Positions 6,201 to 54,587 are shown, numbered from the stretch's first letter. The stretch: 56,958 nt of DNA from Candidatus Parcubacteria bacterium (GCA_027355945.1 DAIEHA010000006.1:1-56958), one strand, 5' to 3'. Program-made: numbers and translations. Notes: a model not told the origin generated them from the sequence alone.

Positions 6201-7205
6201 GTCCGGATGGATGATGCGGACGCCTTGGACCCAGGAGTTCCATGTGTTCGCGAATCCAATGCCATCGACGTCATTCGTCCCGGATCCATCGATCGAAAGG
6301 TTTTCGATCCCCACATTCTCCGACGGCTGGATCACCCAGGCCTGGGGCGTCTGCGCCGCGTTCCAGTTCGGATGGATGAGGCCGGGGGTTATGGTCATCG
6401 TCACCGGTCCCGTGCTGTTGCATGAGGGCGTGCAGGATACCGCCTGGACGATCTCCGATTGGAAGCGGTGCGGGCGACCGAAGCTTCCATCGGGGCCCGG
6501 ATAATCGCAGCCGGTCGATCCGTTGTACAGGTCGCTGCAGTTGAAATAGTTTCCATTGTCCACCGACGATCCGGCGCAGGGGGACCCTGAATATCCCGTG
6601 TCGCATTGGTCGAGGACGATCATGGTCGATCCCGGCACGATGACGGCCCCGGGAAGCCCGTTCGGGAAGGTGATCGAGGTTGCCCCTTTCGCGCCCCCGT
6701 TCCAGTTGTATGCCGCCGATATCCCTCCGGGGTATGTTCCATCGCTGCTCTCGAACCCTATGAGCGTGGTCCCGGCCCCTTCCTGGCAGTTCGCCGGCGA
6801 TGAGAAATCGAGGAACGTGGCGTTCGCTCCCGAACCCCGCAGTTCGACGTTGTTCGCCCCTTGGACGCAGATGCCGGTGCTCAGGTGATATGTTCCCGGA
6901 CCGAGCAGCACATAGGTATCGGCCGGAGCGTTCCTCAAGGCCGTCACTATCTGCGATGCCGTGACCGACGTGCCCGCAGCGGTCACCGTCGCACAGTACG
7001 AATTGGTGCATTGGGCCCATGAGGCGCTTGGGATCCCGCCCGTGACGCCCGCCTGGCTCCAATCGGCACCGCGGTTCGCGCTCAGGATCCCCGTCCACGG
7101 GGTCGCCGCTTCGGCCCTTGGCGTCGCGTAGAGGAATATCGCTCCGGCGATCGCCATCCCTCCCATTGCAGCAAGTCCTACCCAACGCGATTTTTTATAA
7201 TGCAT
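3222..7205 (-). CDS. Large secreted protein (1327 aa): right-handed beta-helix/pectin-lyase-like region, FN3, G/T/S-rich linker, SH3b-like domain, C-terminal amphipathic helix
   Basis: N-terminal signal/TM; beta-helix-like repeats ([35 protein letters not shown]); FN3 [11 protein letters not shown]...[23 protein letters not shown]...[26 protein letters not shown]; SH3b-like WLNVRS...[18 protein letters not shown]. Confidence 0.75.
3790..4050 (-). repeat. Low-complexity coding repeat (GT/GS/TN)n linker
   Basis: Encodes [35 protein letters not shown]...; degenerate 6-nt periodic DNA repeats. Confidence 0.85.
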
Positions 7206-7266
7206 CTTTTCATTGTACCAAATGCGCTTACTTGTCTTTTTGAATTTATTCTTTTATAATAATGTT

Positions 7267-7557
7267 ATGATATTCTGGAAAAGAAAAGAAACGCCCCCCG
7301 CGGAGGATCAACCCTCCAAAGAGCAACGCATGCAGGAACTCCGTGAGAAGATCGCTTCGCTCACCGCGGTCAGAAATGAGATCCTGACATATGCCGGGAC
7401 GCCCGATTGGGGCGGCATCACCGATAGAAACCATCTTGCGGATATTGAGAGGAGGATACGCGAGGCCGATGCGGAAATGAGGTCTCTTGAAGGGCCCGAG
7501 CGCGAAACGTCCTCCGAGTCCGAGGAAAAGGAGGAAGATAAGGAAAAAGTGGCATAA
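7267..7557 (+). CDS. Hypothetical charged coiled-coil protein
   Basis: MIFWKRKE...QRMQELREKIASL...IERRIREADAEMRSLE; TATAAT at 7255-7260 supports the 7267 start. Confidence 0.6.
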   Translation: MIFWKRKETPPAEDQPSKEQRMQELREKIASLTAVRNEILTYAGTPDWGGITDRNHLADIERRIREADAEMRSLEGPERETSSESEEKEEDKEKVA

Positions 7558-7678
7558 AGGGCATAGTTCCGTGTTGGTGTGTCCGGTTTTTTTTGAAACT
7601 CTTTTGATGCCTTTTGCGTATATATAGCGGAAAGGTCATGTTTTTCGGATAAATTCGATCGTTGTATATAAGATTCAC

Positions 7679-8512
7679 ATGAAAAAAATATCCATACCAT
7701 ATACCATTGCAGTACTTGTTTCCTTTGCGGTCTTTGCGGGTGCTACGGGCAGTGCGTTCGCGGCCGTCCGGGGTTCCGGCGGCATGTTCGGCGGGGGAGG
7801 TGGTCCCCGGGGAGGTTCCGCTCCTTACGGGATGATGCGCGGCGGCATATTCGGTACGGTGACCGCAGTGCAGGGCACCGTGATCACCATGCAGGACATC
7901 GGGCGTGACGGGTTCGGTCCTGCGGGGACATCGACCGCAACGGCGGCTGTCACGTACACTGTCGATGCGTCCAATGCCACCGTGATCAAAGGCGGCGCCT
8001 CCTCGACCCTCAGCGCGGTGATCGCGGGCGATCATATCATGGTCCGCGGTACGCTGAACGGCAGGACGGTGACGGCATCCTCCATCATCGATGGGGTCTC
8101 TCCGGGAATGCGGGGCGGCGGGCCGTTCCGCGGCGATACGTCTTCCACATCCTCCTTTTTCCAGGGGAATGGCGAACCTGTCGTCGGAGGGACGGTGACG
8201 GCGGTGAACGGGGTGATGCTCACCATCACGAATGCCGGAGGTACGGCCTATACCATCGATGCGTCGCATGCGACCGTCATGAGGGGCAATGCCACGTCGT
8301 CCGCAGCGACGATCGTCGTGAATGATAGGGTCCTCGTCCAGGGCACGGTGAACGGCACCGCGGTGACGGCGTCCACGATCATCGATCAGGGAACGGTTCC
8401 CGCTGCGGCGGCCGCCTCGGCTGCTGCGCCGCATCGAGGGTTCATGGGGAGGCTTGGAGGGTTTTTCGGCGGCATCGGTTCCTTCTTCCACCATATCTTC
8501 GGGTTCTTCTGA
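7679..8512 (+). CDS. Secreted protein with two DUF5666-like (OB-fold-like) repeats and a Gly/Phe-rich C-terminal helix
   Basis: Signal peptide; repeats GTVTAVQG...YTVDASNATV...GDHIMVRGTLNGRTVTASSIID and GTVTAVNG...YTIDASHATV...NDRVLVQGTVNGTAVTASTIID; C-terminus GFMGRLGGFFGGIGSFFHHIFGFF. Confidence 0.7.
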   Translation: MKKISIPYTIAVLVSFAVFAGATGSAFAAVRGSGGMFGGGGGPRGGSAPYGMMRGGIFGTVTAVQGTVITMQDIGRDGFGPAGTSTATAAVTYTVDASNATVIKGGASSTLSAVIAGDHIMVRGTLNGRTVTASSIIDGVSPGMRGGGPFRGDTSSTSSFFQGNGEPVVGGTVTAVNGVMLTITNAGGTAYTIDASHATVMRGNATSSAATIVVNDRVLVQGTVNGTAVTASTIIDQGTVPAAAAASAAAPHRGFMGRLGGFFGGIGSFFHHIFGFF

Positions 8513-9195: not shown

Positions 9196-9870
9196 CTATC
9201 CCTGGGTTGGCGGGAGGCTTATCATGATCCCTCCTGATGCCGTCGTGGAAAGTTCGAAATAGGTATTGGAGGATCCTCCCGTGGTAAAGCTGAGCGGCAT
9301 CGCCGAAGGATCGACGTTGAAGATGACCTGCTGGTTCGGATACGATGACCCCGGCGCGCCGATGCATGTGCCGTTCTCCCCGAAGGTGAACGCGCTTGTG
9401 AGCGGCGGCTGAAGGTCGCCCATTTCGTTTGCGACGAGCATCAGGTTGAGAGGTACGCATTCGGCGACCGATCCCATCTGGATATTGACGTTGAGCGTGA
9501 GCTGGGACCCCGAGAGCGTTGCCCCGGTGATCGAGAGCGTGTCGTATCCCTCGGTCCAGCTTACCGGGGGCGTCGCATAGGTCGCGGAATAGGATGCGAG
9601 AAGCGTGGAGGATGCCGTCGAGCTTGCGGTGGTGGATCCGTTCCCGCCGATCCCCGTCACGCTCGAACTTGCGGTCGAACTTGCCGTCGAGCTTGCGGTA
9701 TCCGTCAGATTGTAGGCGACGGTGCCCGTGGGAAGGGGAGAGCTCACTACGTAGGTCCCTCCCGTGTTGAACACGACGATATACGCGATCGCACCAAGCA
9801 CGATCGCAGCGCCGAGCAGGACGAGCAGGAGGCGGTTAAGGGTGAGATGGGTGCGAAGCCAGTGCATCAT
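9196..9870 (-). CDS. Membrane-anchored exported protein with Ser/Thr-rich linker
   Basis: N-terminal TM LLLVLLGAAIVLGAIAYIVVF; TASSTASSTASS repeats; extended -10 TGcTATAAT upstream. Confidence 0.65.
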   Translation of the reverse strand: MMHWLRTHLTLNRLLLVLLGAAIVLGAIAYIVVFNTGGTYVVSSPLPTGTVAYNLTDTASSTASSTASSSVTGIGGNGSTTASSTASSTLLASYSATYATPPVSWTEGYDTLSITGATLSGSQLTLNVNIQMGSVAECVPLNLMLVANEMGDLQPPLTSAFTFGENGTCIGAPGSSYPNQQVIFNVDPSAMPLSFTTGGSSNTYFELSTTASGGIMISLPPTQG

Positions 9871-9932
9871 ATAAGACCATTATAGCAGATAGGCCCCGTG
9901 CGGATGGGGCGTCGATGGTCCGCGATGAGGCG

Positions 9933-13737: not shown

Positions 13738-14206
13738 TGGCTCGACAGGTTCCCCGAAATATTTTTTCGCGGTCGTCTGTTTTTGCCCCTAGGACAACGA
13801 GGTCGATAACGGAGTCGCAGCGAACGATCCTTGGAAGATATTCCTTCGTCCGTTGGTCCACATGACCTTAAAAATCGACGTCTTTTTTGTCGTCGTTTCA
13901 AAAAATAAATGACAATAGTTATAAATTATTTTGTAATATTCATTACGTGACTCTTTTTTTGATTCTTTCTTTGAAAGAACCCTTAGGAAGAAAAATCTGC
14001 CCAGTGACGGGGCTTTAGAACGATCCTGAGTAAAATTCGCAATCGTTATCCTCGTGTGTGGATACGTGGTCCTTTCGCGATCCTCATTTTTTTGGATCTA
14101 CGCCCTCTTGACGGATTTCGGAAAGATCACAAGGATGGCATGTGATGCGATGGTGCGATGTCCCTCCTTAAGCTTTTGTTTATGATGTCCATGCTACGCT
14201 TCCGGC

Positions 14207-16054
14207 ATGGAATTCGTGAAGCGGCATAGGAATAGTGCGGCAATCGGTATCGTAGTAGTCGTGTTATTTGCCGCATTCTTTCTTTTCTTCTTTCGCAGAC
14301 ATCCTACTGCGTTTGCCGGTTTGCCGGATCATGCCATCTCGCGTTTGGAGGTATTGCCGGCTGATGCTGCACGCGGCACGGAATCCGGGAGTGCCGACGA
14401 TCCTTTCAAGGGATCCGATATCCTTGGAAATGCGTCTTCCGATGAGGCAATGCCCTCTTTTGCCGTAAATGGGCTTGATGCGATTTCTCAGTTTGCCGCT
14501 TCCGATGTTTTGCCGGTCTCTCCTCATGCATCTTCGGGACCCGATTCCGGATTATCATCGATTGCCGCAGTACCTCCTCCATATCCCAATATCTCTGTAT
14601 CCGATCTTTCGGCTGGTGCATCCTCTTCTTCTCTCTTGTCCTCCTCCTCCCTTCCCGCCGAGGTTCATCTATGTCCATTCCCGTACGCATCGTCCTCGAT
14701 CCCTTCATCCTCGAGACCCGTGATCATAAATGAGGTCGCATGGATGGGTTCTCCCTCTTCTTCGTTGCGGAGCGGTCTTGTTTCCGGCAACGCGGAATGG
14801 ATCGAATTGAAGAACGTCTCAATGGGAGCCATTTCACTTGAGGGATGGAGTTTCCTCGATGCGGCAGGAAAGATGCGGATTCCTATGCCGGACGATGCCT
14901 ATCTCGATTCCGGTGGGTTCCTCCTTCTTGTACGCGGAAGCACCACCTTTCCATATTCACGCGCACGGGAGGTTCCTTATACGGGTATTTTGAGAAATTC
15001 CGGCGATGACCTTGCGCTTATGGATCCTTCCTGTGCGGCCTCCGATCGTGTCTTTGCCGGTGATGGTTGGCCTGCGGGAGATGCCGCGGCGAAGCACACG
15101 ATGGAACGTGATGCCGATGGGACATCTTGGCATACGAGCGTAGGGATCGGAGGGACGCCAGGAGGAGAGAATTCCGTTTCGATGGAGCATGTGTATTACG
15201 AGGCTGTGATCCATCTTGCTGGCTCCGGCGGTGCATCAATAGCGAGCGATCCTTCGGGAATCGCATGCAATGACGGAGTTCGATGCATCGGTTCGTATCC
15301 AGCAGGAACCAAAGTGAAACTCAAGGCGTTACCCGCCCCGGGCACCTTGTTCGGAGGATGGTCTGGTGCGTGTTTCGGCATCGGTTCATGCAGTTTTATG
15401 GTTGTGGGACCTACTGATATCACTGCCTCTTTCCACTATCCTGAATCTCCCTCTTCATCCGAAGCCGGTGATATATCCTTGCATTCTTTGTCCCATTCTT
15501 CCTCTTCTTCGGTCCCCGGCGAGGCCATCATCGCCGATCCATCGCGTTCCGCGTCCTCATCCTCATCATCGCCTTCCGGGACATTTTCAGGGCGTATTTC
15601 CATTGCTGCGGTGCAGATTGCAGGGGAAAGATCCTCGGATGATTTCGTAAAGATCTACAACGCATCAGGATCCGCCATCGATCTTGGAGGGTGGAAGTTG
15701 AAAAAGCGGTCATCCACGGGTGCAGAATACTCCCTTCGCACCTTTCCCGAAGGGACCTCCATTGCTTCCCACACCTATTTTATATGGGCCAATTCCGAGA
15801 ATGGCTTTTCTGCATCCCTTGCCGCCGATTCCTCGAGCACGGAGACGATTTCTGCTGATAACAGCATCGCCTTGCTCGATCCCGAGGGGAAGGTGGCAGA
15901 TGCTCTTGCGTGGGGTTCGGGAAAGGGACAATTCGGGGAAGGGAACCCGTTTCCTTCAAATCCGGGACCCGGTCAAGTCCTTTCCCGCATATTTTCAGAT
16001 CCGAGCGGACCGGTCGATACGGGCGATAATGCAAACGATTTCCTGCTTCATTGA
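14207..16054 (+). CDS. Membrane-anchored protein with two lamin-tail domains and an InlB B-repeat-like domain
   Basis: N-terminal TM; LTD1 VIINEVAWMG...EWIELKN...ISLEGWSF; LTD2 ISIAAVQIAG...DDFVKIYN...IDLGGWKL...DTGDNANDF; B-repeat-like SDPSGIAC...YPAGTKVKLKALPAPGTLFGGWSGAC. Confidence 0.8.
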   Translation: MEFVKRHRNSAAIGIVVVVLFAAFFLFFFRRHPTAFAGLPDHAISRLEVLPADAARGTESGSADDPFKGSDILGNASSDEAMPSFAVNGLDAISQFAASDVLPVSPHASSGPDSGLSSIAAVPPPYPNISVSDLSAGASSSSLLSSSSLPAEVHLCPFPYASSSIPSSSRPVIINEVAWMGSPSSSLRSGLVSGNAEWIELKNVSMGAISLEGWSFLDAAGKMRIPMPDDAYLDSGGFLLLVRGSTTFPYSRAREVPYTGILRNSGDDLALMDPSCAASDRVFAGDGWPAGDAAAKHTMERDADGTSWHTSVGIGGTPGGENSVSMEHVYYEAVIHLAGSGGASIASDPSGIACNDGVRCIGSYPAGTKVKLKALPAPGTLFGGWSGACFGIGSCSFMVVGPTDITASFHYPESPSSSEAGDISLHSLSHSSSSSVPGEAIIADPSRSASSSSSSPSGTFSGRISIAAVQIAGERSSDDFVKIYNASGSAIDLGGWKLKKRSSTGAEYSLRTFPEGTSIASHTYFIWANSENGFSASLAADSSSTETISADNSIALLDPEGKVADALAWGSGKGQFGEGNPFPSNPGPGQVLSRIFSDPSGPVDTGDNANDFLLH

Positions 16055-16519: not shown

Positions 16520-16587
16520 TCCGTCTCCCGTGAATTCGGCAGAACGGCGATTCTGACTTCGCGGAGGTTGGGGTATAATGAATGGCA

Positions 16588-17175
16588 ATGAGAGGAAACC
16601 ATATGGTCATTTTTATCATTGCTTTTATCATCGCGGTGGTTGGTGGATCGGTGGCATGGCACTATCTTTTAGGCGTTCCCAATCCGCCCCTTCCTTTGGC
16701 TCAAGTAGTTATCGGCGCCTCAGGATCTTCCTCTACGGCGGCTCAGGCTGCAGATTCCACGTCAACCGACGTCGTGAACCCCGTACTTCCCAAGGAAAGC
16801 CTTTCCATCGATGGGGCGACATGGACCGTGGAGATGGCGACAACCACCGTCGAGCAGGCCCGCGGCCTTTCGTATAGGACGAGCCTTGCCCCTGGAACGG
16901 GCATGCTGTTCATGTTTCCGACGCCTGGAGTGCAGAATTTCTGGATGAAAGACATGAATTTCCCTCTTGATATGATCTGGATCGCGCAAAATGGGACCGT
17001 TGCCGGATTCACCGAGAACATTCCTGCTCCTGCGCCCGGTACCGCGCTTTGGAATCTTAAGATCTACACCTCTCCCGCCGGAGTGAGTCAAGTATTGGAG
17101 GTGAACGCAGGTTCGGTCGCACGCTACCGCATAAAGACGGGGGATAACGTGACGCTCTCGCCCCTTGCGTCATGA
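16588..17175 (+). CDS. DUF192-family exported protein
   Basis: VEMATTTVEQARGLSYR, GMLFMF, FWMKDMNFPLDMIWI, VLEVNAG; N-terminal TM; TATAAT at 16574-16579. Confidence 0.88.
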   Translation: MRGNHMVIFIIAFIIAVVGGSVAWHYLLGVPNPPLPLAQVVIGASGSSSTAAQAADSTSTDVVNPVLPKESLSIDGATWTVEMATTTVEQARGLSYRTSLAPGTGMLFMFPTPGVQNFWMKDMNFPLDMIWIAQNGTVAGFTENIPAPAPGTALWNLKIYTSPAGVSQVLEVNAGSVARYRIKTGDNVTLSPLAS

Positions 17176-24409: not shown

Positions 24410-24430
24410 GATATCTGTTATAATTTATTC

Positions 24431-25000
24431 ATGATAGAGGACCGCAGGATGCATCGGCTCGGCCATCGCGCGTTCGTGCTGTTCCTTTCGCGGCGGATCA
24501 AATTCGCCGTATTCCTGTTCCTTCTCACGGCTGCGATATGGTTCGCCTCGGCACAATGGCTTTCCGGAATCTCTGCGCTCTGGGGAAACTATGCCGTACA
24601 GGTCTTCTTCCTTATCAGTATAGCGTATCTCCTCTTCATCCTGCTACGTACCTATATGGAATACCGGGCGTACACCTATTCATTCCTGCGGAACGCGTTC
24701 GTGGTGACGCGGGGCTACATTACCCGGACCGAGACCGCGACGCTCTACCACCAGATCCAGAATGTGAACATCGAACGCAGCATGACCGATCGCATGACCG
24801 GAGTGAGCAGTATCGTCATCTTTCTCGCGGGCGGGCAGTATGATTCCCCGCACAACAAGATCGTTCTTCCTGCCGTGGGAGCCCGGACGGCGCGGCTGGT
24901 CCAGAAGGAACTGCTTTTGAGGGCGCGAAGGCATGCCATGGGCGCCACGGAGGATGCAGGTGCCTACGAACCGAGGCGCCGGCGCGGTATTGCCTCATAG
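24431..25000 (+). CDS. Bacterial PH-domain (bPH_2, YdbS-like) membrane protein
   Basis: Two TMs, then Y.YSFLRNAFVVTRGYITRTETATLYHQIQNVNIERSMTDRMTGVSSIVI; start set by TGtTATAAT at 24416-24424. Confidence 0.8.
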   Translation: MIEDRRMHRLGHRAFVLFLSRRIKFAVFLFLLTAAIWFASAQWLSGISALWGNYAVQVFFLISIAYLLFILLRTYMEYRAYTYSFLRNAFVVTRGYITRTETATLYHQIQNVNIERSMTDRMTGVSSIVIFLAGGQYDSPHNKIVLPAVGARTARLVQKELLLRARRHAMGATEDAGAYEPRRRRGIAS

Positions 25001-25026
25001 CGCTCGCGCCGTATACAATACTCTTC

Positions 25027-25584
25027 ATGAACACCTCCTCTATCGCATTGCTTCTTCAGGTCGCCGCATCGCTTCTTTCGGGCGTGCAGCATGATCCTTC
25101 GATCCCGCGCTCTGCTGCGGTCCAGGCGGTGGCCATTGCTGGAAGGGCCGTCCAGGTCGCCGCGCAGGCTGAGGCGAATATAGGATTCAATGTCCCGCCG
25201 AACACCGGCATCTGGCCGACGGTCGGCGATCTCATGCAATCGGCGTATCGCACGGGGAATGGGACCTACGTACCCCAAGGCCAAGGGGTCGTCCTCGATC
25301 AATCGACCATATCGTTCGGTGATCTGAACGGCGACGGGTTCGATGATGCGGCTGCCCTCGTTGACGTCGGAAAGGGGAAGGCTGCACGGACGGAACTCGC
25401 GGTATTCCTCAATCAGGACAATGTCATGTTCAATATCGCCGATCTTCCTCTCGGCGTCTCCACCACCGTGTATTCGCACGAGATCATGGGCGGGGTGCTT
25501 GAGATGGATATGCGGACGGACGGAGGCCCGCGCGCCACTTCCACTTATGAGCTTGTGGGGGAGCGCATCATGAACGTGCGCTGA
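25027..25584 (+). CDS. Hypothetical exported protein with one FG-GAP/EF-hand-like Ca-binding motif
   Basis: FGDLNGDGFDDAAALV; hydrophobic N-terminus. Confidence 0.6.
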   Translation: MNTSSIALLLQVAASLLSGVQHDPSIPRSAAVQAVAIAGRAVQVAAQAEANIGFNVPPNTGIWPTVGDLMQSAYRTGNGTYVPQGQGVVLDQSTISFGDLNGDGFDDAAALVDVGKGKAARTELAVFLNQDNVMFNIADLPLGVSTTVYSHEIMGGVLEMDMRTDGGPRATSTYELVGERIMNVR

Positions 25585-26947: not shown

Positions 26948-27067
26948 ATAGTATCCATTGTAGGTTCCATCCCTCAAATAATCCAGACATCGCTCCGCCG
27001 GTCCTCTTAAACGGTATTCTCATATCGCCCGATGTAGTAAACCCGATCAGGCTTTTGTATAATGAGA

Positions 27068-27270: not shown

Positions 27271-27300
27271 TTGACCATCCCGTCCTTTTCGGTATATAAT
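27271..27300 (+). promoter_or_regulatory. Sigma70 promoter of rpsP, leaderless geometry
   Basis: TTGACC, 18 nt, TATAAT, 7 nt, ATG at 27308. Confidence 0.7.
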
Positions 27301-27307
27301 GACCCTC

Positions 27308-28102: not shown

Positions 28103-28146
28103 GATGCTTGCAAAAGCGTCGTCCCGCAATTATCATTACTATCGTT

Positions 28147-29898: not shown

Positions 29899-29910
29899 TA
29901 TCATGAGTGT

Positions 29911-30537: not shown

Positions 30538-30548
30538 AACGGCCTTTT
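30525..30548. terminator. Bidirectional terminator
   Basis: AAAAGGCCGTT-GA-AACGGCCTTTT overlapping the HD gene stop. Confidence 0.7.
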
Positions 30549-30584
30549 TGATTCCGCCATATTTATATGCTACTATGGCGCTAT

Positions 30585-34016: not shown

Positions 34017-34043
34017 CCCTGCGTTTGTGATATACTCTGCGCA

Positions 34044-37749: not shown

Positions 37750-39312
37750 TCAGTTCACGGAGAAGATGTCCTCTTGGGGGGTGTGCTCGGGGATGGTTCC
37801 CGTCGCATTGGGTCCCGCCGGCACTATATAGTGGATGTTCCCCGCCGAGGCATCGGCCGCGGTGAAGGAGTGCGTGATGAACATCACGGTCTCTGCGGGG
37901 ACCGGAATGCCTCGCGCGGGAACCCCGCCCGCATTCACGATCACGTACTTCGGCGTAGCGATGGGAAGTGCATTCATTGCATCGCCGACCGTCACGTAAT
38001 CCGCATTGAACGCGCCCGGTACGTTGGGATTGCGAGCCCATGTGATGAAATATTCCGTATAGCCCCCGATCGCAACAAATGCGAGGAAGAGCGCCGCGAT
38101 CGTCTTTGCGATCGAGGGATTCCATTCAAGCTTCCTCGTCATCAGGCGATACGCCCAGATGCCTCCGATCGCGGTGAAGATGAGCGCGGGTGCGAGGGCG
38201 AGGATCGATCTCAGCGCATGAGGGATCCCCTCATCGGATGCTGCTGCGGGCAGGATCCCGAATGCGAACCATGCAAATGTGAGAAGAAGCGCAAATGGAG
38301 GGAATATATCATCGGAATCTTGCATCGTACGTTCTGTGGGATCCTTCTTGTGCCGGGAGCGCCAGTGCTTCCAAAGGGATGTCCCGGAAACCGCGATCCC
38401 GAGCAGGAACAGGATCCCGACGGGCCAGAAGAGCTCCGGAGCCCCGCTCACATTCTGCCGCCAGTTATAATCCCCCCGCACGTTGAACATCAGAAGTTCC
38501 TTTCCTACGTTCACCCCAAAGTCGTGGATAGGATTTGTCCCTGTGGTGACCGCGATTTCCGCGGTGCGTCCGAAGAAGCTTCCGGGATGGCTTACGAAGT
38601 ACCATCCGATAGGAAGGGAAACGATGACCGCGACCGCGATGAAAAGGGCGGTCTTCTTCCAGAATCCCGGTGTGGTGCGGAAAAAGGGGATGAAAAGAAG
38701 GAAGAGGATCGGCGTGTCCCGGTATGCGATGTAGGTATAGAATCCTGTGGCATATACCGCTCCCGCGAGCGCGGCATACCACCATCCCGTCGTTTTGTCG
38801 TCCGCCTCATCCATACCGCCCCCTTTCCTTCGTCTGGCCCGGAATGCTTTAAGGAGAAGCCAAAGCGCCCAAATGAGGAAGAGGGGAGCGAGGATCGCAC
38901 GGAATCCGATGCGGGAAAATATGATGCCCCAGAAGCTCGTCGCGAGGAGGAACGCCGCAAGCAGTCCGGTGGCATCGCCAAGAAGCTCTCCTACGAGAAG
39001 ATAGAATCCCCAGACGGTGGCCACGCCCGCGAACGCGGCAGGCACGCGGACGATCCATGGCTGGGTCTTGTCCGCTACGGGGGCTATTTTGATGACGACC
39101 GCAAGGATATTCACATAGAGACCCTCGCGGCCGTTATCCTCGACATAGAAAGGCTGAAAATGCCCCGTTTCTGCGACTTCCGTCGCGTTGTTGCCATCCA
39201 TCGCTTCGTCCGGATAGAGCCCTGCCGGGATCGTCGTCAAATGGTAGAAGCGGAGGAAGGCTGCTATAATGAGGATACCTACAAGGAGCGACCAGCGAAG
39301 GGATCGTTGCAT
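37750..39312 (-). CDS. GT-C fold membrane glycosyltransferase (ArnT/PMT-like, GT39/GT83)
   Basis: LRFYHL...GLYPDEA (DE motif in first external loop), WIVRVPAAFAG, SRIGFR, more than 10 TMs; start set by TGaTATACT at 39320-39328. Confidence 0.85.
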   Translation of the reverse strand: MQRSLRWSLLVGILIIAAFLRFYHLTTIPAGLYPDEAMDGNNATEVAETGHFQPFYVEDNGREGLYVNILAVVIKIAPVADKTQPWIVRVPAAFAGVATVWGFYLLVGELLGDATGLLAAFLLATSFWGIIFSRIGFRAILAPLFLIWALWLLLKAFRARRRKGGGMDEADDKTTGWWYAALAGAVYATGFYTYIAYRDTPILFLLFIPFFRTTPGFWKKTALFIAVAVIVSLPIGWYFVSHPGSFFGRTAEIAVTTGTNPIHDFGVNVGKELLMFNVRGDYNWRQNVSGAPELFWPVGILFLLGIAVSGTSLWKHWRSRHKKDPTERTMQDSDDIFPPFALLLTFAWFAFGILPAAASDEGIPHALRSILALAPALIFTAIGGIWAYRLMTRKLEWNPSIAKTIAALFLAFVAIGGYTEYFITWARNPNVPGAFNADYVTVGDAMNALPIATPKYVIVNAGGVPARGIPVPAETVMFITHSFTAADASAGNIHYIVPAGPNATGTIPEHTPQEDIFSVN

Positions 39313-39360
39313 ATATTCCAGTATATCAAATCGAAGCGATAAAAATTCCAACTTCCATCA

Positions 39361-39810: not shown

Positions 39811-39859
39811 GGCACGCGCGTCCGGTTTCCGGGATGCGGCCTGTGCTACAATGAATGCA

Positions 39860-42253
39860 ATGGCAGATTTTTGGATACTTCTTGCGATCGTGCTCGGCGC
39901 CGCCGCGGGGGTCGCTGCGTTTTTCATCGTGCGTGCCGTAGCGAGGCGGAAGATCTTCGATTCGCTCCAGACGTCGCTTTTCCTCGTACGGATCCCCAAG
40001 GCATTCCCCACCGATAATGCCACCTCGTCGGAAGGGGACGATTTCAAGACGGAGCTCGCCCATTTCGAACAGCTCCTTGGTTCGCTTGCCGCGATCAGGC
40101 GACCGTTCACGTTCGAGGTTGCCGTGCCGCACGTCGGCGAAGAGATCCATTTCTATCTCGGCGTGCCAAAGCTTTCCTCCGAAATCGCAGCGAAGCAGGT
40201 CCAAGGATTCTGGAATGGCGCGAGCGTGGAGCTCGTAGGGGACGATTTCAACATCTTCAACGTCCATGGGACGACGGTGGCGGCCTATGTCACCGAAAAG
40301 GAGAATTTCGCCCTTCCCGTGAGGACCTATGCCGAACTTGGACTTGATTCCTTCGAATCGATCGTGGGTTCATTCTCGAAGATCGCGGAGATCGGCGAAG
40401 GGGCTTCGCTCCAGGTCATCCTTCGTCCCGCGTTCCCGAGCGCGAAGAAGACCATCCAGGGTTACATAGAGCTTTTGAAGCGGGGCGAGAAGCTCGAGAA
40501 GATATTCAAAGCAGGATTCATCAGCGGTCTTGAGGATGCGATAAAGCTCCTGAATCCCGATTCCAAAAAGGAAGAGGAGAAGAAGGAGCGGGAGAAGGTG
40601 ATCGATGATGAGGCCGTGAAGGCACTCACCGCAAAGACCACAAAGCCTCTTTTCGACGTGAACGTGCGCATCGTGGCGAGCGCAGCATCGAAGTTCCAGG
40701 CGGACGACATCCTTGAGGGCCTTGCCGCGGGTTTCAGCCAGTTCGCAAGCCCCATGCGCAACGAGTTCAAGATCGTGAAACCCAGGAATCCGCGGTCGCT
40801 CGTCGAGAAATTCATCTATCGGGAATTCGACGCTTCCCATGCGATGACCCTTTCCGCCGAGGAGATCGCGAGCTTCTATCATTTCCCGATCGCATCCACA
40901 GAGACCCCTCGGGTGAAGTGGCTCAAGGCAAAAGAGGCTCCGCCCCCGGATAACATGCCGAAGGAGGGGTTATGCCTCGGGGACAGCGTGTTCCGCGGAC
41001 AGACGCGCCCCGTCTATCTCACCGATGAGGATCGGCGGCGCCATATCTACGTGGTGGGACAGACCGGGACCGGAAAATCGACGCTTCTCAACAACCTCAT
41101 CATCGAGGATATTGCGCGCGGAAGGGGCATCGCGGTGATCGACCCTCACGGCGAGCTTGTTGAAAAGGCGCTCGCGTTCGTTCCGAAGGAACGGCTCGAC
41201 GATGTGATCTATTTCGACCCCGGCGACCTTTCACGGCCGATCGGGCTCAATATGCTCGATCACGATCCCGCGAAGCCCGAGGAGCGTACGTTCATCGTGA
41301 ACGAAATGCAGAGCATCTTCGATAAGCTCTTCGACCAGGAATCGATGGGGCCGATGTTCCAGCAGTACATGCGGAACGCACTCCTTCTTCTCATGGAGGA
41401 TATGCCGAACGAACCGGCGACGCTCGTCGAGGTGCCGCGCATCTTCACTGACAGCGCATACCGCAATAGGAAGCTCGCGCGGATCTCAAACCCGGTCGTC
41501 ATCGATTTCTGGGAAAAGGAGGCGGTGAAGGCCGGAGGGGAGGCGTCGCTCGCGAATATGACGCCCTACATCACCTCAAAATTCGGAGGATTCATCACGA
41601 ACGATTATATGCGGCCCATCATCGGGCAATCGAAGTCGGCGTTCAATTTCCGGGAGGTGATGGATTCCGGGAAGATCCTCCTCGTCAATCTTTCCAAGGG
41701 AAGGATAGGGGATATCAACGCGAGCCTCCTTGGCATGGTGTTCACCGGGAAGATCCTCATGGCAGCGCTCTCGCGCGCCGGGAGCGATGATGCTTCCCGC
41801 CGCGATTTCAATCTCTATATCGACGAGTTCCAGAACTTCACGACCGATTCCATCGCAACGATCCTCAGCGAGGCGCGGAAATACCATCTTTCGCTCACAA
41901 TGGCCCATCAGTTCGTCGGCCAGCTCACCGATGCCATCAAGGCTGCGGTCTTCGGTAACGTGGGATCGGAGCTCGTGATGCGTGTGGGTATGGAGGATGC
42001 GGAATTCCTCGCGAAGCAGTTCATGCCGACGTTCAACGAGAGCGATCTCATCAACATCGATAACTTCAATGCCTATGCGAAGATCCTCGTGAACGGCCAG
42101 ACCTCGAGGCCTTTCAACCTGCGGATCGGCACGCAATCGTGGGCGCCCGGGAACGCGGACCTCGTGGGGAAGCTCAAAGAATATTCCCGGTTGAAATATG
42201 GGGTGGAACGTGCCGCGATCGAAGACGAAATCTATCGCCGCTTGCGGGAATAG
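39860..42253 (+). CDS. VirD4/TraD/TrwB-like (HerA-FtsK superfamily) ATPase
   Basis: N-terminal TM; RRRHIYVVGQTGTGKST (Walker A), AVIDPHGE, LYIDEFQNF (Walker B), LSEARKY, AHQF, AVFGNVGS. Confidence 0.88.
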   Translation: MADFWILLAIVLGAAAGVAAFFIVRAVARRKIFDSLQTSLFLVRIPKAFPTDNATSSEGDDFKTELAHFEQLLGSLAAIRRPFTFEVAVPHVGEEIHFYLGVPKLSSEIAAKQVQGFWNGASVELVGDDFNIFNVHGTTVAAYVTEKENFALPVRTYAELGLDSFESIVGSFSKIAEIGEGASLQVILRPAFPSAKKTIQGYIELLKRGEKLEKIFKAGFISGLEDAIKLLNPDSKKEEEKKEREKVIDDEAVKALTAKTTKPLFDVNVRIVASAASKFQADDILEGLAAGFSQFASPMRNEFKIVKPRNPRSLVEKFIYREFDASHAMTLSAEEIASFYHFPIASTETPRVKWLKAKEAPPPDNMPKEGLCLGDSVFRGQTRPVYLTDEDRRRHIYVVGQTGTGKSTLLNNLIIEDIARGRGIAVIDPHGELVEKALAFVPKERLDDVIYFDPGDLSRPIGLNMLDHDPAKPEERTFIVNEMQSIFDKLFDQESMGPMFQQYMRNALLLLMEDMPNEPATLVEVPRIFTDSAYRNRKLARISNPVVIDFWEKEAVKAGGEASLANMTPYITSKFGGFITNDYMRPIIGQSKSAFNFREVMDSGKILLVNLSKGRIGDINASLLGMVFTGKILMAALSRAGSDDASRRDFNLYIDEFQNFTTDSIATILSEARKYHLSLTMAHQFVGQLTDAIKAAVFGNVGSELVMRVGMEDAEFLAKQFMPTFNESDLINIDNFNAYAKILVNGQTSRPFNLRIGTQSWAPGNADLVGKLKEYSRLKYGVERAAIEDEIYRRLRE

Positions 42254-42316: not shown

Positions 42317-42413
42317 ATGATGCATCATGGCATCGTGGCGACGGTCCTTCTCTCCTATCGCACATGGCACCGCATAGTTGGCCGCGGTCCCCGCATCTGG
42401 TAAAATGGAATGC

Positions 42414-43598
42414 ATGATCACCTATCTTCGCAATGTATCGCCATCCGTGCTTGACGGGACGGCGCTTCTTCGCCTTGATTTCAACACGAAAGACGATTGG
42501 CGCATGCGTGCCGTCATCCCTACCGTGAAATTCCTGCTGGATGCGGGCGTCACGATCGTCGTCGTGAGCCATCGGGGCCGTCCCTCGGGGGGTTCGCTCG
42601 TGAATGGCGTCCCCACGGGCTTCCCTTCCGATCTCCATCTCCGGAAGGATGCCGCGAAGCTCTCTGCGCTGATCGGCCGCCGCGTCGCGTTCATCGACCA
42701 TTTCCGCTTTCCTGAAATAAAGGAACGCGTGGCTGCCTCGCCGCACGGGTCCGTGTTCCTTCTCGACAACCTTCGCTTCATGCCGGGCGAGGAGAGGAAC
42801 GACCCGAAGTTTGCGCGGCAACTCGCCTCGCTTGCCGATTTCTACGTGAACGATGCGTTTGCGGTCTCGCATCGGGCGAACGCATCGGTGGTTGCAGTGA
42901 CCGATCTCCTGCCGAGCTACGGCGGTCTTGAGCTCCAGGATGAGATCGAAGGGCTTTCGCGTGCGATCATGGCCCCTGTCCATCCGGTGGTGCTCATTCT
43001 CGGGGGAGCGAAGGCATCCGACAAACTTGGGGTCGTACGCCGTTTTCGTTCCCGTGCGGATACGTTCCTCCTCGGCGGCGGTTCTGCGAACAGCATCCTT
43101 GCGCTTCGCGGCATCGATGTGAAGGAGTCCCTTCGCGAAACCGATCCGAAGGTCCTCGCCGCGCTCAAACCCCTTGCGCGGAATCCCAAAGTCGTGCTTC
43201 CCGCGGATCTCGTATGGGGACGGGGCAAGGACGCCGGGAAGATCCTCGATCTCGGACCCCGGACGCAGAAGCTTTTCGCAGCGCGGATCGCCGCAGCGCG
43301 GACGATCGTATGGAGCGGTCCGCTCGGATTCATAGAACGCGCGCCGTATGCGAATGCAAGCATCGCGGTTGCGCGCGCGATCGGAAGGAACAAGAAGGCG
43401 TTCTCGCTCACCGGCGGCGGAGAGACGGTGATGTTCCTGAAGAAGTACGGGCTCGATAAGGGATTCAGCTTCATTTCGACAGGCGGCGGCGCGATGCTCG
43501 ATTTCCTCGCGGGAGAGAAGCTTCCCGGCATTGTCGCGCTTGGGAAACAGCGGATGCGCCCGCGCACGAAAAAAAGGAACGCACGATCCGTCGCATGA
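42414..43598 (+). CDS. pgk: Phosphoglycerate kinase
   Basis: RLDFN, SHRGRP, NLRF, YVNDAFAVSHRANAS, GGAKASDK, ISTGGGA; start set by TGgTAAAAT. Confidence 0.93.
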   Translation: MITYLRNVSPSVLDGTALLRLDFNTKDDWRMRAVIPTVKFLLDAGVTIVVVSHRGRPSGGSLVNGVPTGFPSDLHLRKDAAKLSALIGRRVAFIDHFRFPEIKERVAASPHGSVFLLDNLRFMPGEERNDPKFARQLASLADFYVNDAFAVSHRANASVVAVTDLLPSYGGLELQDEIEGLSRAIMAPVHPVVLILGGAKASDKLGVVRRFRSRADTFLLGGGSANSILALRGIDVKESLRETDPKVLAALKPLARNPKVVLPADLVWGRGKDAGKILDLGPRTQKLFAARIAAARTIVWSGPLGFIERAPYANASIAVARAIGRNKKAFSLTGGGETVMFLKKYGLDKGFSFISTGGGAMLDFLAGEKLPGIVALGKQRMRPRTKKRNARSVA

Positions 43599-45665: not shown

Positions 45666-45674
45666 TGATATAAT
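45666..45674 (+). promoter_or_regulatory. Extended -10 promoter of rnpB
   Basis: TGaTATAAT, 6 nt before the P1 helix. Confidence 0.7.
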
Positions 45675-45680
45675 ACTGTT

Positions 45681-46143
45681 GTGGGGCGGAACGGACGATC
45701 GCTCTCCGATTTGTATCGTGCGGCGCATGTCGCTGCGCGACGGGACGGGGAGAGGAAAATCCGGACACCCTCTTCGCTCCGGTGCCGCATTCGTGCGGAA
45801 CCGGAATCCGCTACGGCGGAACGCGCTACCGGCGCGGCGGAGACAAAAAGGTACCCGGCGAAACGCCGGGCGTCCGCAAGGATAGAGGTGCGAGCAGTGA
45901 CGTTCCGAGGCGAAAGCCGAGGAAGGACCCCATCCCGACGTAGAAGGTCCAATTCCGCTATAGGGATGATAAGGCGGAAGTGAAACGGCAAAATCCTTAC
46001 CGGGTGCAAGGTCGTGCCTCATCGATCCTTAACGGATCGATGAGGAGTGCCGCAAGAACCCGCGAGCAATCAAGGGTCCAGATGAATGATCGTCCCCGCG
46101 CGTCCGCGCGCGGCGACAGAATCCGGTTTATAGTCCGCCCTGC
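45681..46143 (+). ncRNA. rnpB: RNase P RNA (about 460 nt, expanded)
   Basis: GAGGAAAATCCGGAC (P4 5' strand), GTGAAACGG, AGATGAATGATCG, ACAGAATCCGGTTTA (P4 3' strand); P1 GGGCGGA/TCCGCCC; P2 GGACGATC/GATCGTCC. Confidence 0.93.
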
Positions 46144-46260
46144 AGTCGAAAACCCGCTCGAAATGGCGGGTTTTCGGCACCGACGTCCTTGAGAGAGATA
46201 TCTTTCCCGATAAAAATCCCGCGTGAAGCGGGATTTTCATACAACGGCATATGTCGAGTA

Positions 46261-47185: not shown

Positions 47186-47328
47186 GACCCGCTCCTTTCC
47201 GGCGGTTCCCGGTTTTCAGGCGAAGGACGTTCTTAGGGAAATCTACCATGCGCGCGGAAACAGGGTCAATCAGACCCTTATCCATACGTGCACAGTGCGG
47301 CAAAATTTCCCGGTGATATAATAGAGCC

Positions 47329-48495
47329 ATGGAGAAGAACGATAAAAAAATGATGGCGGTGGTGCGCGGTGCGGGGATCGCAGCGGTGTTCGTTGTTGCC
47401 GCGTCCTTTGCGGTGCCGACGGTCCGTGCGGCGTATTTCGGTACGGGGAGGAACGTCACCCTCGATGCCCCGGCGGTGGTCGATCAGAACGTCTATGCGG
47501 CGGGCACCGACGTCTCGGTGTCGGCCCCGGTAACGGGGGATGTGTTTGCGGCGGGCGATGTCGTCTATATCTCAAGCAGGGTAACGGGCGATATCATGGC
47601 ACTTGGCAGTACGGTGATGATCCAAGGTGCGGAGGCGCAGGACGTCCGTGTGGCCGCGGCAAATCTTACCGTCGGCGGCGCGTTCAGCGGGGAACTCCTT
47701 GCCGCCGGCGCATCGGTGACGGTCACTCCGGGTACCACGATCGCGAAGGATTCCTATATTGCCGCGAGCGATCTTTCGTTCGACGGTGATGCATCGGGCA
47801 CTTTGTATGTGATGGGCGGCACCGTATATTTTGACGGCACGACCCGGGGGAATCTCGTGATCAAGAATGCAAAGGAGGTTACGATAGGTCCCGATGCGAT
47901 GATCGGCGGGAATCTCGAATATACCGCCCCGCGCGCCGCCTCGATCGCGCAACGCGCCCGTATCGGAGGGACTACGCTGTTCCATCAGGCGCAGACACGC
48001 GATGCGCACAATGCATGGGCGCCTTTCCTCGCGATCCTCACGCTTTGGTGGCTCGTGAAACTCGCCATCATCCTCGCGGGCGCCTATCTTCTCTGGTATG
48101 CGTTCAAGAAGGATGTGACATCCATCGCGTCCCGTGTCGTGAATGGATTCTGGAAGGAGCTCCTTCGCGGGTTCCTCGTCGCGGTCGCGCTCCCCATCGC
48201 CTCGGTGATCGCCATCTTCACCGTCATTGGCGCATTGCCTGGCGTCGTGGCGCTCTTTGCCTATGCGGCGGTCATGATAGCCGCGGTGCCTATGGCCGGG
48301 ATCGTGAGCGCCACCATCATCTGGTCGCGGCGCAAGGAGGCCCTTCGCTGGTATCATATCCTTCTCGGTACCATTGCCCTTCCTATCGTGGCACTCGTGC
48401 CGTTCGTCGGATGGATCGTGGCATGCGCGGTCTATCTCGCATCCTTCGGCGCCCTTACGCTATTCCTCTCGGAGAGGATCATGAAACGATCATAG
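47329..48495 (+). CDS. Exported beta-solenoid (polymer-forming/bactofilin-like repeat) protein with C-terminal multi-TM domain
   Basis: Repeats NVYAAG.DV.V...V.GDVFAAG, GDIMALG, GELLAAG; about five C-terminal TMs. Confidence 0.7.
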   Translation: MEKNDKKMMAVVRGAGIAAVFVVAASFAVPTVRAAYFGTGRNVTLDAPAVVDQNVYAAGTDVSVSAPVTGDVFAAGDVVYISSRVTGDIMALGSTVMIQGAEAQDVRVAAANLTVGGAFSGELLAAGASVTVTPGTTIAKDSYIAASDLSFDGDASGTLYVMGGTVYFDGTTRGNLVIKNAKEVTIGPDAMIGGNLEYTAPRAASIAQRARIGGTTLFHQAQTRDAHNAWAPFLAILTLWWLVKLAIILAGAYLLWYAFKKDVTSIASRVVNGFWKELLRGFLVAVALPIASVIAIFTVIGALPGVVALFAYAAVMIAAVPMAGIVSATIIWSRRKEALRWYHILLGTIALPIVALVPFVGWIVACAVYLASFGALTLFLSERIMKRS

Positions 48496-52655: not shown

Positions 52656-52667
52656 GGGCGGGAGCCG

Positions 52668-53165
52668 TTATGCGCTGGCGTGCCGCGCCTCCTCTTCCTT
52701 CTTCCGCTCGATGCGTTCCGCGATGCTCACCGTTCTCAGGAAGTAAAGGATCACCGCGAGAATGACCGTTGCGGTACCTGCGAACCATGGGAGTCCTATG
52801 CCGACAAGCGTTCCGATCGCCGCCGCGGACCATATGAGGGCGGCCGTCGTCACGCCGCGCGGATGGTCGTTCATTTTCATGATGATCCCGGCACCGAGGA
52901 ATCCCACGCCGACCACGATGTTCGCGATCACGGTAAGGAATCCGCTGTTTCGTGCGATGACGTCCGCAAGGTTGCCCGTTCCCGCGGAGACGATGTAGGG
53001 GAGCGAGAGGCCGATCATGGCGAAGATGGCTGCGCCGGACGTCACGAGGCTCAAGGTGCGGATGCCCGCCTCCTCTTTGCCGACAAGCTCGCGTTCGAGC
53101 CCAAGGATCGCCCCGAGGATGAGCGCGATGAGGAACCGTCCAAGCATTTGTTCAAACGTCAACAT
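52668..53165 (-). CDS. mgtC: MgtC/SapB-family protein (short, TM domain only)
   Basis: LGAILGLERE...AGIRT; IANIVVGVGFLGAGII; GVTTAALIWSAAAIG; 165 aa from ATG 53165. Confidence 0.9.
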   Translation of the reverse strand: MLTFEQMLGRFLIALILGAILGLERELVGKEEAGIRTLSLVTSGAAIFAMIGLSLPYIVSAGTGNLADVIARNSGFLTVIANIVVGVGFLGAGIIMKMNDHPRGVTTAALIWSAAAIGTLVGIGLPWFAGTATVILAVILYFLRTVSIAERIERKKEEEARHASA

Positions 53166-53189
53166 TGTATTAATATTACCATAACATAT

Positions 53190-54587
53190 ATGGATACGAG
53201 AACGAACATTGCGGATATCGTCGGAAAGGAGGGCCAGGATGTGACCGTCTTCGGATGGGTTCATGCTCGCAGGGACCACGGTAAGCTTATTTTCATCGAT
53301 CTGCGCGATCGGAGCGGCCTCGTGCAGGTGGTGTTCGGTCCCAAGATAGCCGGGGCATCGGATCTCCGTCTTGAGTATGTCGTGAAGGTGACGGGTACGG
53401 TGAACCGGCGTCCGGAGAATATGGTGAACGACAAGATCCCGACGGGTCATCATGAGATCTTTGCGAGCGGCCTTGAGGTTCTCAATGCCTCGAAGGAGAT
53501 GCCGATCCCGGTGGATACCGATGGGTACGATATCCATGAGGAGCGGCGCCTCAAATACCGCTATCTCGATCTTCGGCGGGAGCGTCTTGCGAAGAACCTC
53601 GCATTCCGCCATGCGACGATCGCGTTCATCCGCAATTTCCTCAACGCGCGGGGATTCTACGAGGTGGAGACGCCGAACCTCACCCGCAGCACGCCGGAGG
53701 GTGCGCGTGACTATCTCGTTCCTTCCCGCATCCAACGGGGCAATTTCTACGCACTCCCGCAATCGCCTCAGCAGTACAAACAGCTGCTTATGGTGGCGGG
53801 TGTCGAGAAATATTTCCAGATCGCGCGATGTTTCCGCGATGAGGATACGCGGGGCGACCGTCAGCCGGAATTCACCCAGCTCGACATGGAGATGAGTTTC
53901 GTGGAAGAGGAGGACATCCTGCGCTTGAACGAGGAGCTCCTCATCGCGCTCGTAAAGGCGGTCGCACCGGAGAAGAAGATCCAGGAGGTCCCGTTCCCGC
54001 GCCTTACCTACAAGGAGGCGATGGAGACGCATGGTACCGATCGGCCCGACCTTCGCACCGATAAGAACGATCCGAACCTCCTTGCGTTCTGCTGGGTGAT
54101 CGATTTCCCGTTCTTCGAGAAGACCGACGCAGGCGGGTGGACCTTCACGCACAATCCGTTCTCCGCGCCGAAGCCGGAGTTCATGAACGACCTCCTCGCG
54201 AAGCAGAATGTGGGGGATATCCTCACCACGCAATACGATGTCGCGATGAACGGGCTTGAGATCGGCGGCGGGAGCATCCGCAACCATCGGCCGGAGGCGC
54301 TGGAAGCGGTGTTCGAGGTCATGGGCTTCGAAAAGGAGCGCATCCATAGGAATTTCGGTCATATGCTCGAGGCCCTCGGATATGGTGCGCCGCCTCATGG
54401 CGGTATCGCATGGGGACTCGATCGGCTCATCTCGCTCCTCCGCGCAGAGCCCAACATCAGGGAGGTGATCGCGTTTCCGAAGACGGGCGACGGCCGCGAT
54501 CCGATGATGGGATCGCCCGCAGAGGTGGACGAGGCGCAGTTGAAGGAACTGGGGATCGTGGTTGCAAAGACGGAACAAAAAAAATAA
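53190..54587 (+). CDS. aspS: Aspartyl-tRNA synthetase, short form without GAD insertion
   Basis: 465 aa; RRDHG.LIFIDLRD, RLKYRYLDLR, LPQSPQ, CFRDED.RGDRQPEFTQLD, EIGGGSIR, PPHGGIAWGLDR. Confidence 0.95.
   Translation: MDTRTNIADIVGKEGQDVTVFGWVHARRDHGKLIFIDLRDRSGLVQVVFGPKIAGASDLRLEYVVKVTGTVNRRPENMVNDKIPTGHHEIFASGLEVLNASKEMPIPVDTDGYDIHEERRLKYRYLDLRRERLAKNLAFRHATIAFIRNFLNARGFYEVETPNLTRSTPEGARDYLVPSRIQRGNFYALPQSPQQYKQLLMVAGVEKYFQIARCFRDEDTRGDRQPEFTQLDMEMSFVEEEDILRLNEELLIALVKAVAPEKKIQEVPFPRLTYKEAMETHGTDRPDLRTDKNDPNLLAFCWVIDFPFFEKTDAGGWTFTHNPFSAPKPEFMNDLLAKQNVGDILTTQYDVAMNGLEIGGGSIRNHRPEALEAVFEVMGFEKERIHRNFGHMLEALGYGAPPHGGIAWGLDRLISLLRAEPNIREVIAFPKTGDGRDPMMGSPAEVDEAQLKELGIVVAKTEQKK

Follow-up and report, generated by a model that had tools for sequence, protein, structure and literature searches.

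When a promoter box lies directly in front of a start codon, where does transcription begin, and how does the ribosome recognize the gene? This question is raised by a 56,958-nt stretch of DNA from a Candidatus Parcubacteria bacterium (GCA_027355945.1 DAIEHA010000006.1:1-56958), which as a whole is called the window in the following. A preliminary description made from its sequence had noticed a -10 box 6 to 8 nt upstream of about 17 start codons, and had proposed that leaderless initiation is a main mode of gene expression in this organism, even for ribosomal protein and synthetase genes. Our analysis leads to the same reading, to which we assign a probability of roughly 0.8: the boxes would be parts of genuine sigma-70 promoters, placed in such a way that transcription starts at or within very few bases of the ATG and yields leaderless mRNAs lacking a Shine-Dalgarno (SD) sequence. 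Patescibacteria make up a substantial part of bacterial diversity; their ribosomes are reduced and hardly any of them have been cultured, and we found no study of their translation initiation in the literature searched.

A -10 box at a fixed distance from start codons

Because circularity had to be avoided, we based the scan on public gene calls, using the 50 calls of contig JAKBDY010000004.1 of the metagenome-assembled genome (MAG) GCA_021834065.1, part of which is identical to the window. For each gene, every in-frame ATG between the upstream stop codon and 25 codons past the public start was treated as a candidate start, resulting in about two candidates per gene. A TANNNT box preceded an in-frame ATG with a spacer of 6 nt in six genes, of 7 nt in eight and of 8 nt in three. 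The background at spacers of 9 to 39 nt was a mean of 1.4 genes each, which gives a binomial P of 3e-7 for spacers 6 to 8, and not a single out-of-frame ATG in the same zones had a TANNNT box at these distances. The 17 genes recovered by this unbiased scan are exactly the 17 of the preliminary description, whose motifs, spacers and ATGs were all located in the sequence as it had given them (Table 1); all 17 starts are ATG codons. Taking the public starts strictly, 8 of the 50 genes have the geometry (P = 0.004).

The extended -10 motif TGNTANNNT (TGnTAnnnT) occurs 43 times on both strands of the window. An ATG follows 6 to 8 nt downstream in 12 of these cases, compared to 1.9 ± 1.5 (maximum 10) in 200 dinucleotide shuffles. 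Together with the peak at spacers 6 to 8, this is, at the scale of the window, the positional enrichment that the preliminary description had named as a check of its claim.

Among genes that come first in a transcription unit, this appears to be the commonest arrangement, and overall we estimate it for 17 to 20 of the 50 genes, about a third. Sixteen genes are divergent from their upstream neighbour, and nine of these have it. Housekeeping genes are included, with rpsP, proS, aspS, pgk and the PBP2 gene having the geometry and efp nearly so.

Table 1. Promoter elements upstream of start codons in the window, with the RNase P RNA gene. Motifs are given with the distance to the ATG and the position of the ATG; public calls are those of the identical contig.
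Element	Position	Strand	Gene and remarks
TGgTACAAT, 6 nt, ATG 7205	7203..7220	-	1327-aa fn3/SH3 surface protein; divergent from 7267 across 61 bp
TATAAT, 6 nt, ATG 7267	7255..7269	+	96-aa protein; -35 TTGTCT at 17 bp; public start 7330
TGcTATAAT, 8 nt, ATG 9870	9868..9887	-	224-aa membrane protein; public call same
TGcTACGCT, 6 nt, ATG 14207	14192..14209	+	lamin-tail-domain protein; public call same
TATAAT, 8 nt, ATG 16588	16574..16590	+	DUF192 protein; public start 16603
TGtTATAAT, 6 nt, ATG 24431	24416..24433	+	bPH_2 protein; 21 bp from divergent DoxX start 24409
-35 TTGCCT, 18 bp, TACAAT, 7 nt, ATG 25027	24990..25029	+	-35 within upstream coding sequence
-35 TTGACC, 18 bp, TATAAT, 7 nt, ATG 27308	27271..27310	+	rpsP (ribosomal protein S16, MLAIKLQRIG)
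TGaTATCAT, 6 nt, ATG 29911	29896..29913	+	HD-domain hydrolase; TG of the extended -10 from the mnmA TGA stop
-35 TTGATT, 17 bp, TGcTACTAT, 8 nt, ATG 30585	30548..30587	+	proS
TGaTATACT, 7 nt, ATG 34044	34028..34046	+	PBP2/mrdA gene; public start 34110
TGaTATACT, 7 nt, ATG 39312	39310..39328	-	PMT_2 glycosyltransferase; public call same
TGcTACAAT, 7 nt, ATG 39860	39844..39862	+	HerA/T4SS (type IV secretion system)-coupling-like ATPase; public ATG 39851 overlaps -10
-35 TTGGCC, 17 bp, TGgTAAAAT, 7 nt, ATG 42414	42378..42416	+	pgk; public ATG 42405 overlaps -10
TGaTATAAT, 6 nt, ATG 47329	47314..47331	+	bactofilin-like protein; public call same
TGgTAATAT, 7 nt, ATG 53165	53163..53181	-	mgtC; divergent intergenic region 24 bp
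TACCAT, 7 nt, ATG 53190	53177..53192	+	aspS (465 aa); -10 overlaps mgtC -10 on the opposite strand
-35 TTGCAA, 17 bp, TATCAT, 10 nt, ATG 28147	28108..28149	+	efp; beyond the preliminary list
TACAAT, 9 nt, ATG 26947	26945..26962	-	PEGA-domain protein, divergent from rpsP; beyond the preliminary list
TGcTAGGAT, 10 nt, ATG 56355	56353..56374	-	short prfA; beyond the preliminary list
RNase P RNA gene (rnpB), bacterial class A, 465 nt	45682..46146	+	RF00010, full model, E = 1.7e-22
rnpB promoter TGaTATAAT	45666..45674	+	non-coding internal control for the motif and the distance from the -10 box to the RNA 5' end

Promoter character and conservation in relatives

The TGn of an extended -10 box is present in 12 of the 17 sites, and these have weak -35 elements. 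Among the five sites without TGn, three have a -35 hexamer with at least 4 of 6 matching bases at 17–18 bp, a feature that is found for 12 % of all TANNNT boxes in the window. Such an apparent trade-off between TGn and the -35 element is classical sigma-70 promoter behaviour. The best promoter match in the window is the promoter of rpsP.

As an internal control for where transcription starts, the preliminary description had used rnpB, with the motif lying 6 nt before the 5' end of the RNA. TGaTATAAT does precede this non-coding gene, but the distance from the end of the box (45674) to the start of the model is 7 nt. The rnpB score of 79.6 bits lies under the Rfam gathering score of 100, and the gene would therefore be missed by default Rfam annotation. 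Its length of 465 nt compared to 367 model positions suggests lineage-specific insertions.

The same motif is also present 23 to 49 nt upstream of leadered genes, namely those for L21, GAPDH and the large subunit of ribonucleotide reductase (RNR) and the gene starting at 1187. The RNR operon (13645-13701, minus strand) is clearly leadered, with TGcTACAAT 48 nt before the ATG and an A-rich leader lacking an SD, and within the window it offers the best case of this promoter type combined with a 5' untranslated region (UTR). Upstream of the gene starting at 1187 (1200-1245, minus strand), the consensus TGaTATAAT is found at a distance of 49 nt. An 8-codon open reading frame (ORF), ATGCTCCTTCGTCCGGAGCAAGAATAA, begins 13 nt after this box and could be a small leader ORF.

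The geometry of the intergenic regions is tight. Divergent start codons are 21, 24, 48 and 61 bp apart, and in the 47-nt gap between the HD-domain gene and proS a terminator-like hairpin following the HD-domain gene overlaps the -35 region of proS, so that little room is left for a leader. The shortest of these distances, 21 bp, separates the divergent pair doxX/bPH_2 (24410-24430). Between mgtC and aspS (53166-53189, 24 bp), the -10 boxes overlap on opposite strands and form a minimal bidirectional promoter. The product of aspS (53190-54587, plus strand) has 465 aa compared to about 590 in the bacterial model and matches it in two stretches, with an internal segment apparently absent. The mechanical ORF for aspS (52296-54587, 763 aa) is about 300 codons too long and crosses mgtC on the other strand.

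The window has a guanine-cytosine (GC) content of 57.5 %, its genome uses genetic code 11, and the DNA runs that contain it are from a mine drainage metagenome. Its prolyl-tRNA synthetase (ProRS) is most similar to that of an unclassified MAG with no label other than 'bacterium' (WH2.bin17, 82 % identity); next come MAGs of Paceibacterota (72 %) and of Candidatus Wolfebacteria (70 %), and among the further 77 best matches, most carry a Patescibacteria or candidate phyla radiation (CPR) label. Because of these ProRS relatives and the fitting gene content, which includes giant surface proteins, the lamin-tail-domain protein, mreBCD with the PBP2 gene and compact housekeeping genes, we conclude that this ultrasmall organism is a Parcubacteria-type CPR bacterium.

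In its relatives, the position of the box is retained. For rpsP, 49 of 69 distinct orthologue upstream regions from metagenomes (63–87 % protein identity) have TANNNT at a spacer of exactly 7 nt. Most of the rpsP upstream regions carry TATAAT or TATACT with a TTGACC -35 element at 17–18 bp, the elements being separated by variable sequence. In 61 of 70 cases a pyrimidine occupies position -1, which, together with the spacer of 7 nt and the A at the putative +1, agrees with the preference of transcription for a purine start preceded by a pyrimidine. In the case of proS, whose start codon is fixed by the N-terminus MRQSxLFT, 46 of 80 Patescibacteria loci (29–64 % GC) have a box at spacers of 6 to 9 nt, compared to about 12 in other bins of four spacers. 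The efp orthologues differ in a consistent manner: a -10 box is found at 9–10 nt in 20 of 31 (10 nt in 13 of 31), most of them with a TTGCAA -35 element, and a leader of about 3–4 nt is probably conserved. The fixed difference of 3 nt between efp (10 nt) and rpsP (7 nt) suggests that this leader of 3–4 nt is deliberate.

No peak of boxes was detected for two operon-internal genes, the KH gene downstream of rpsP (n = 52 orthologues) and mreB downstream of proS (n = 49); the KH orthologues carry a conserved A-rich leader instead. In the closest relative (L005), the PBP2 gene has TGgTATACT 7 nt before its ATG, and the start at 34044 is therefore favoured over the public start at 34110. Among the other genes in related loci, for which crude first-ATG starts were used, TANNNT at spacers of 6 to 9 nt was counted 85 times vs about 35 (352 genes) and 23 times vs about 7 (129 genes), an enrichment of 2.4- to 3-fold above the flanking bins. 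The pattern thus appears to reach well beyond the window genome, to the related Patescibacteria loci sampled.

Translation signals and the weight of the evidence

SD-like sites were defined as the 4-mers GGAG, GAGG or AGGA at a spacer of 4 to 12 nt. Using promoter-consistent starts, we found such a site before 5 of the 50 genes, and using the public starts before 8 of the 50, compared to 12.5 % at random positions of the window. The same analysis of a 50-kb control from Escherichia coli resulted in 36 of 55. In related Patescibacteria loci, the values were likewise at background, with 9 % vs 9.1 % at random (352 genes) and 5 % vs 8.3 % (about 480 genes in total). An SD-like motif at a distance that would allow its use is missing from all 17 sites, as the preliminary description had stated. 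It understated the case in two respects, since the leadered genes also appear to lack SD sequences and the pattern seems to run through the related loci sampled. The 20 nt before non-leaderless starts contain 36 % A and 16 % G, whereas the window as a whole contains 21 % A and 29 % G, and ATGA overlaps occur in four gene pairs. ATG is the start codon of 49 of the 50 genes, which seems unusual for a genome with 57 % GC.

The absence of SD sequences and the A-rich upstream regions of other genes would also suit a translational function of the box. TANNNT would then be an AT-rich non-SD signal inside longer 5' UTRs and not a promoter, similar to the non-SD motif near the start in genomes of GeneMarkS-2 group B (PMC6028130). 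The group B motif, however, precedes all genes, and the box is absent from the operon-internal KH and mreB orthologues described above. In addition, the box is accompanied by TGn or by a -35 element at 17–18 bp, it precedes the non-coding rnpB, and divergent pairs 21–24 bp apart offer little space for a longer UTR, except if transcription began within the adjacent gene. We regard a purely translational role as very improbable.

The reading that we prefer, leaderless mRNAs made from sigma-70 promoters, can be put together as follows. An extended -10 box (TGnTAnnnT) or a -35 element plus a -10 box would recruit the sigma-70 holoenzyme, which would start about 7 bp downstream of the -10 box, at the A of the ATG. 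This distance is in agreement with transcription starts in 49 bacteria, which centre 7 bp downstream of the -10 box (PMC12641261). The resulting mRNAs would have neither a 5' UTR nor an SD sequence, and a ribosome with initiator tRNA would bind the 5'-terminal AUG directly, without pairing between SD and anti-SD. Internal and leadered genes would be served by unstructured A-rich leaders or by coupling to the upstream stop codon (ATGA). We infer both the start position, from the -10 distance rule, and the ribosomal route. All sequence-level predictions of leaderless initiation as a main mode that could be tested, for ribosomal protein and synthetase genes as well, support it: enrichment at in-frame starts, promoter-like boxes, lack of SD sequences, presence at unit-first and absence from internal genes, and conservation in orthologues.

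Several points weigh against this reading, and two of them concern background. Counted over the whole window, the plain pattern TANNNT-N6-8-ATG is only weakly enriched (46 vs 35), and a generic -35/-10 sigma-70 scan detected 8 sites compared to 9.2 in shuffles. Both results would be in line with an artefact of chance and composition, created by AT-rich intergenic DNA and a free choice among ATGs. Weak enrichment is expected for so loose a pattern, and the signal is therefore specific to gene starts (or to TGn); four of the eight sites of the generic scan place the -10 box 7–10 nt before a gene start. Chance is already contradicted by the shuffles of the extended -10 box followed by ATG (12 vs 1.9), by the spacer scan, in which the peak is limited to spacers of 6 to 8 nt and to in-frame ATGs, and by the rpsP orthologues. 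The position is also kept in orthologues from genomes with 29–64 % GC, and we give the chance explanation next to no credence.

A further point is that 9 of the 17 starts differ from the public calls. The preliminary description had held that the geometry corrects many start calls; homology upholds its starts for rpsP (27308), proS (30585), aspS (53190) and the PBP2 gene (34044) and no further ones, and only two of these, rpsP and the PBP2 gene, are among the nine. The starts at the remaining differences are candidates suggested by the geometry (7205, 7267, 16588, 24431 and 53165, and shifts of 9 nt at 39860 and 42414). Moreover, the transcription starts themselves are predicted from the distance to the -10 box, and a 5' UTR of 0 nt is therefore indistinguishable from one of 1–3 nt. 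A leaderless mRNA has a 5' UTR of 0 nt, and in mycobacterial studies of 0–5 nt. Since spacers of 7–8 nt could give leaders of 1–2 nt, and the 10 nt of efp a short leader, some of the genes may be nearly rather than strictly leaderless.

These considerations are the basis of an alternative in which the promoters are real, but have leaders of 1–5 nt, or in which translation truly starts elsewhere than at some of the ATGs chosen, so that the genes would be nearly leaderless or mis-started. The spacers of 7–8 nt, and of 9–10 nt for efp, the PEGA gene and prfA, do exceed the canonical 6 nt, and besides the disagreement with the public calls a further in-frame ATG is present 6–9 nt upstream at 16588, 39860 and 42414. 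A wrong start is opposed by homology, which fixes the N-termini of rpsP, proS and aspS, and by the upstream ATGs at 27299, 39851 and 42405, which overlap the -10 box and would fall outside the transcript. Short leaders are opposed by rpsP, whose 7-nt spacer and whose bases at -1 (a pyrimidine) and +1 (A) suit preferred initiation. Taken together, we consider this alternative unlikely.

The remaining points against leaderless initiation come from SD sequences, folding and transcript data. Strong SDs of the GGAGG type are present at a few genes (8642, 45578 and 47185), and an anti-SD may therefore still exist; no rRNA genes were found in the window or in 168 related loci. Folding of the first 40 nt did not separate the two classes, with -4.4 kcal/mol for leaderless candidates and -4.7 kcal/mol for other genes (P = 0.57), both being less structured at the 5' 40 nt than gene interiors (-8.5 kcal/mol). 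In three metatranscriptomes of the same mine-drainage study, transcripts of the window genome were absent and the only finds were conserved RNase P cores that belong to other organisms; a peat metatranscriptome, from the habitat of a relative, contributed one contig of 247 nt, which lies inside the coding region of a relative and covers no start.

Three loci deserve mention in their own right. A GC-rich hairpin with a T run, GGGGCgtccgcttagggtggaaGCCCCgtttt (28740-28776, plus strand), ends 7 nt before the ATG of mnmA; no promoter or SD is visible upstream of this start, and read-through from efp is one possibility for its expression. The release factor gene at 55624-56355 (minus strand) codes for 243 aa with PVT and GGQ motifs, aligned to positions 104-341 of the 347 of the RF1 model. 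According to this alignment it is an RF1 lacking the whole N-terminal domain 1, and since the Ser-rich ORF upstream is unrelated to it, a programmed frameshift of the prfB type was ruled out. Finally, the gap of 533 bp between the genes for the lamin-tail-domain and DUF192 proteins (16055-16587) contains two competing ORFs, 16070-16519 (plus strand, 149 aa), which had no match in a scan against NCBIfam, and 16312-16602 (minus strand, 96 aa), which is publicly called.

Implications and comparison with known systems

In a wider view, Parcubacteria and perhaps much of Patescibacteria may be essentially SD-free, with leaderless mRNAs as the default for unit-first genes and A-rich leaders or termination-reinitiation elsewhere; we would give this generalization even odds. 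If true, it would form a counterpart, at the level of function, to the anti-SD loss that has been reported for their reduced ribosomes, and would resemble haloarchaea more than any studied bacterium. A dominant leaderless mode together with SD-free leaders would explain how reduced ribosomes find start codons, and the combination of both in such a lineage addresses an open question. Whether leaderless initiation is ancestral or reappears upon genome shrinkage is a further question to which it is relevant. On the practical side, the annotation of gene starts in tens of thousands of CPR MAGs would improve, given the share of differing public starts found here, and for culturable CPR bacteria a rule for expression can be formulated: a promoter, the ATG 6–8 nt after the -10 box and no ribosome-binding site (RBS).

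The closest link to published work is the study of Parcubacteria ribosomes by Tsurumaki et al. (2022), in which the CCTCCT anti-SD was found at the 3' end of 16S rRNA in only 48 % of Parcubacteria (PMC9297842). In the authors' view, the SD helix is not formed in some of them, and they left the consequence open (PMC9297842). The lineage is the same, and the lack of SD sequences described here is plausible as the mRNA-side counterpart; in contrast to our analysis, that study covered rRNA and ribosomal proteins only and leaderless mRNAs were unmentioned (PMC9297842). Our literature search yielded no report on leaderless mRNAs of CPR bacteria, whether under this name or as Patescibacteria, Parcubacteria or Saccharibacteria, although transcription-start data for Nanosynbacter lyticus or automatic GeneMarkS-2 classes may already include them. 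According to a citation in PMC12641261, such a data set exists for this Saccharibacterium.

The geometry itself is well known. The preliminary description had called it an established mark of leaderless mRNAs in Actinobacteria and Deinococcus-Thermus, which is documented: GeneMarkS-2 group C genomes are defined by a Pribnow box 6–8 nt before the start, have 25–50 % leaderless operons, and occur often among Actinobacteria and Deinococcus-Thermus but seldom among Proteobacteria and Firmicutes (PMC6028130). As in group C (Mycobacterium tuberculosis, Streptomyces, Deinococcus deserti), where a quarter to half or more of the transcription units are affected, TANNNT lies 6–8 nt before the starts of operon-first genes in the window, housekeeping genes included (PMC6028130). 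Leadered and internal genes of group C genomes, however, are likely to use an RBS and are described by SD-type models (PMC6028130; bioRxiv 10.1101/2022.07.25.500264), whereas SD-like sites here are at background. The SD-type sites that a group C genome would lead one to expect on the remaining genes were not found (5 of 50, random 12.5 %). The window also differs in lineage, belonging to Patescibacteria, and in that its transcription starts are predicted from the sequence.

Mycoplasma genomes are reduced, as is the window genome. Group C genomes with code 4, for example four of Mycoplasma, share a large predicted leaderless portion with the window, 30–60 % of transcripts in their case (bioRxiv 10.1101/2022.07.25.500264). 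They differ by an RBS model for the other genes, low GC and code 4, in contrast to 57 % GC and code 11 here.

Group B genomes, mostly of the Fibrobacterota-Chlorobiota-Bacteroidota (FCB) group including Bacteroidota, are similar in having no SD enrichment and AT- or A-rich sequence before starts. Their motif precedes all genes and has no promoter function, and leaderless genes play no prominent part, whereas the box described here appears to be a promoter restricted to the start of transcription units. For Bacteroidota, an SD interaction that is available yet goes unused has been reported. Outside Bacteria, haloarchaea such as Haloferax volcanii and Halobacterium salinarum come close. Next to the leaderless mRNAs there, the leadered ones largely lack an SD, which is the same combination as in the window genome. 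Leaderless mRNAs form the majority, more than 60 % according to work cited in PMC6028130. They differ in their archaeal transcription and initiation machinery and in a promoter box about 26 nt upstream rather than a -10 box. The window combines a known geometry, in a lineage for which we found no report of it, with one real difference from the bacterial systems that share it: the other genes appear to do without SD sequences.

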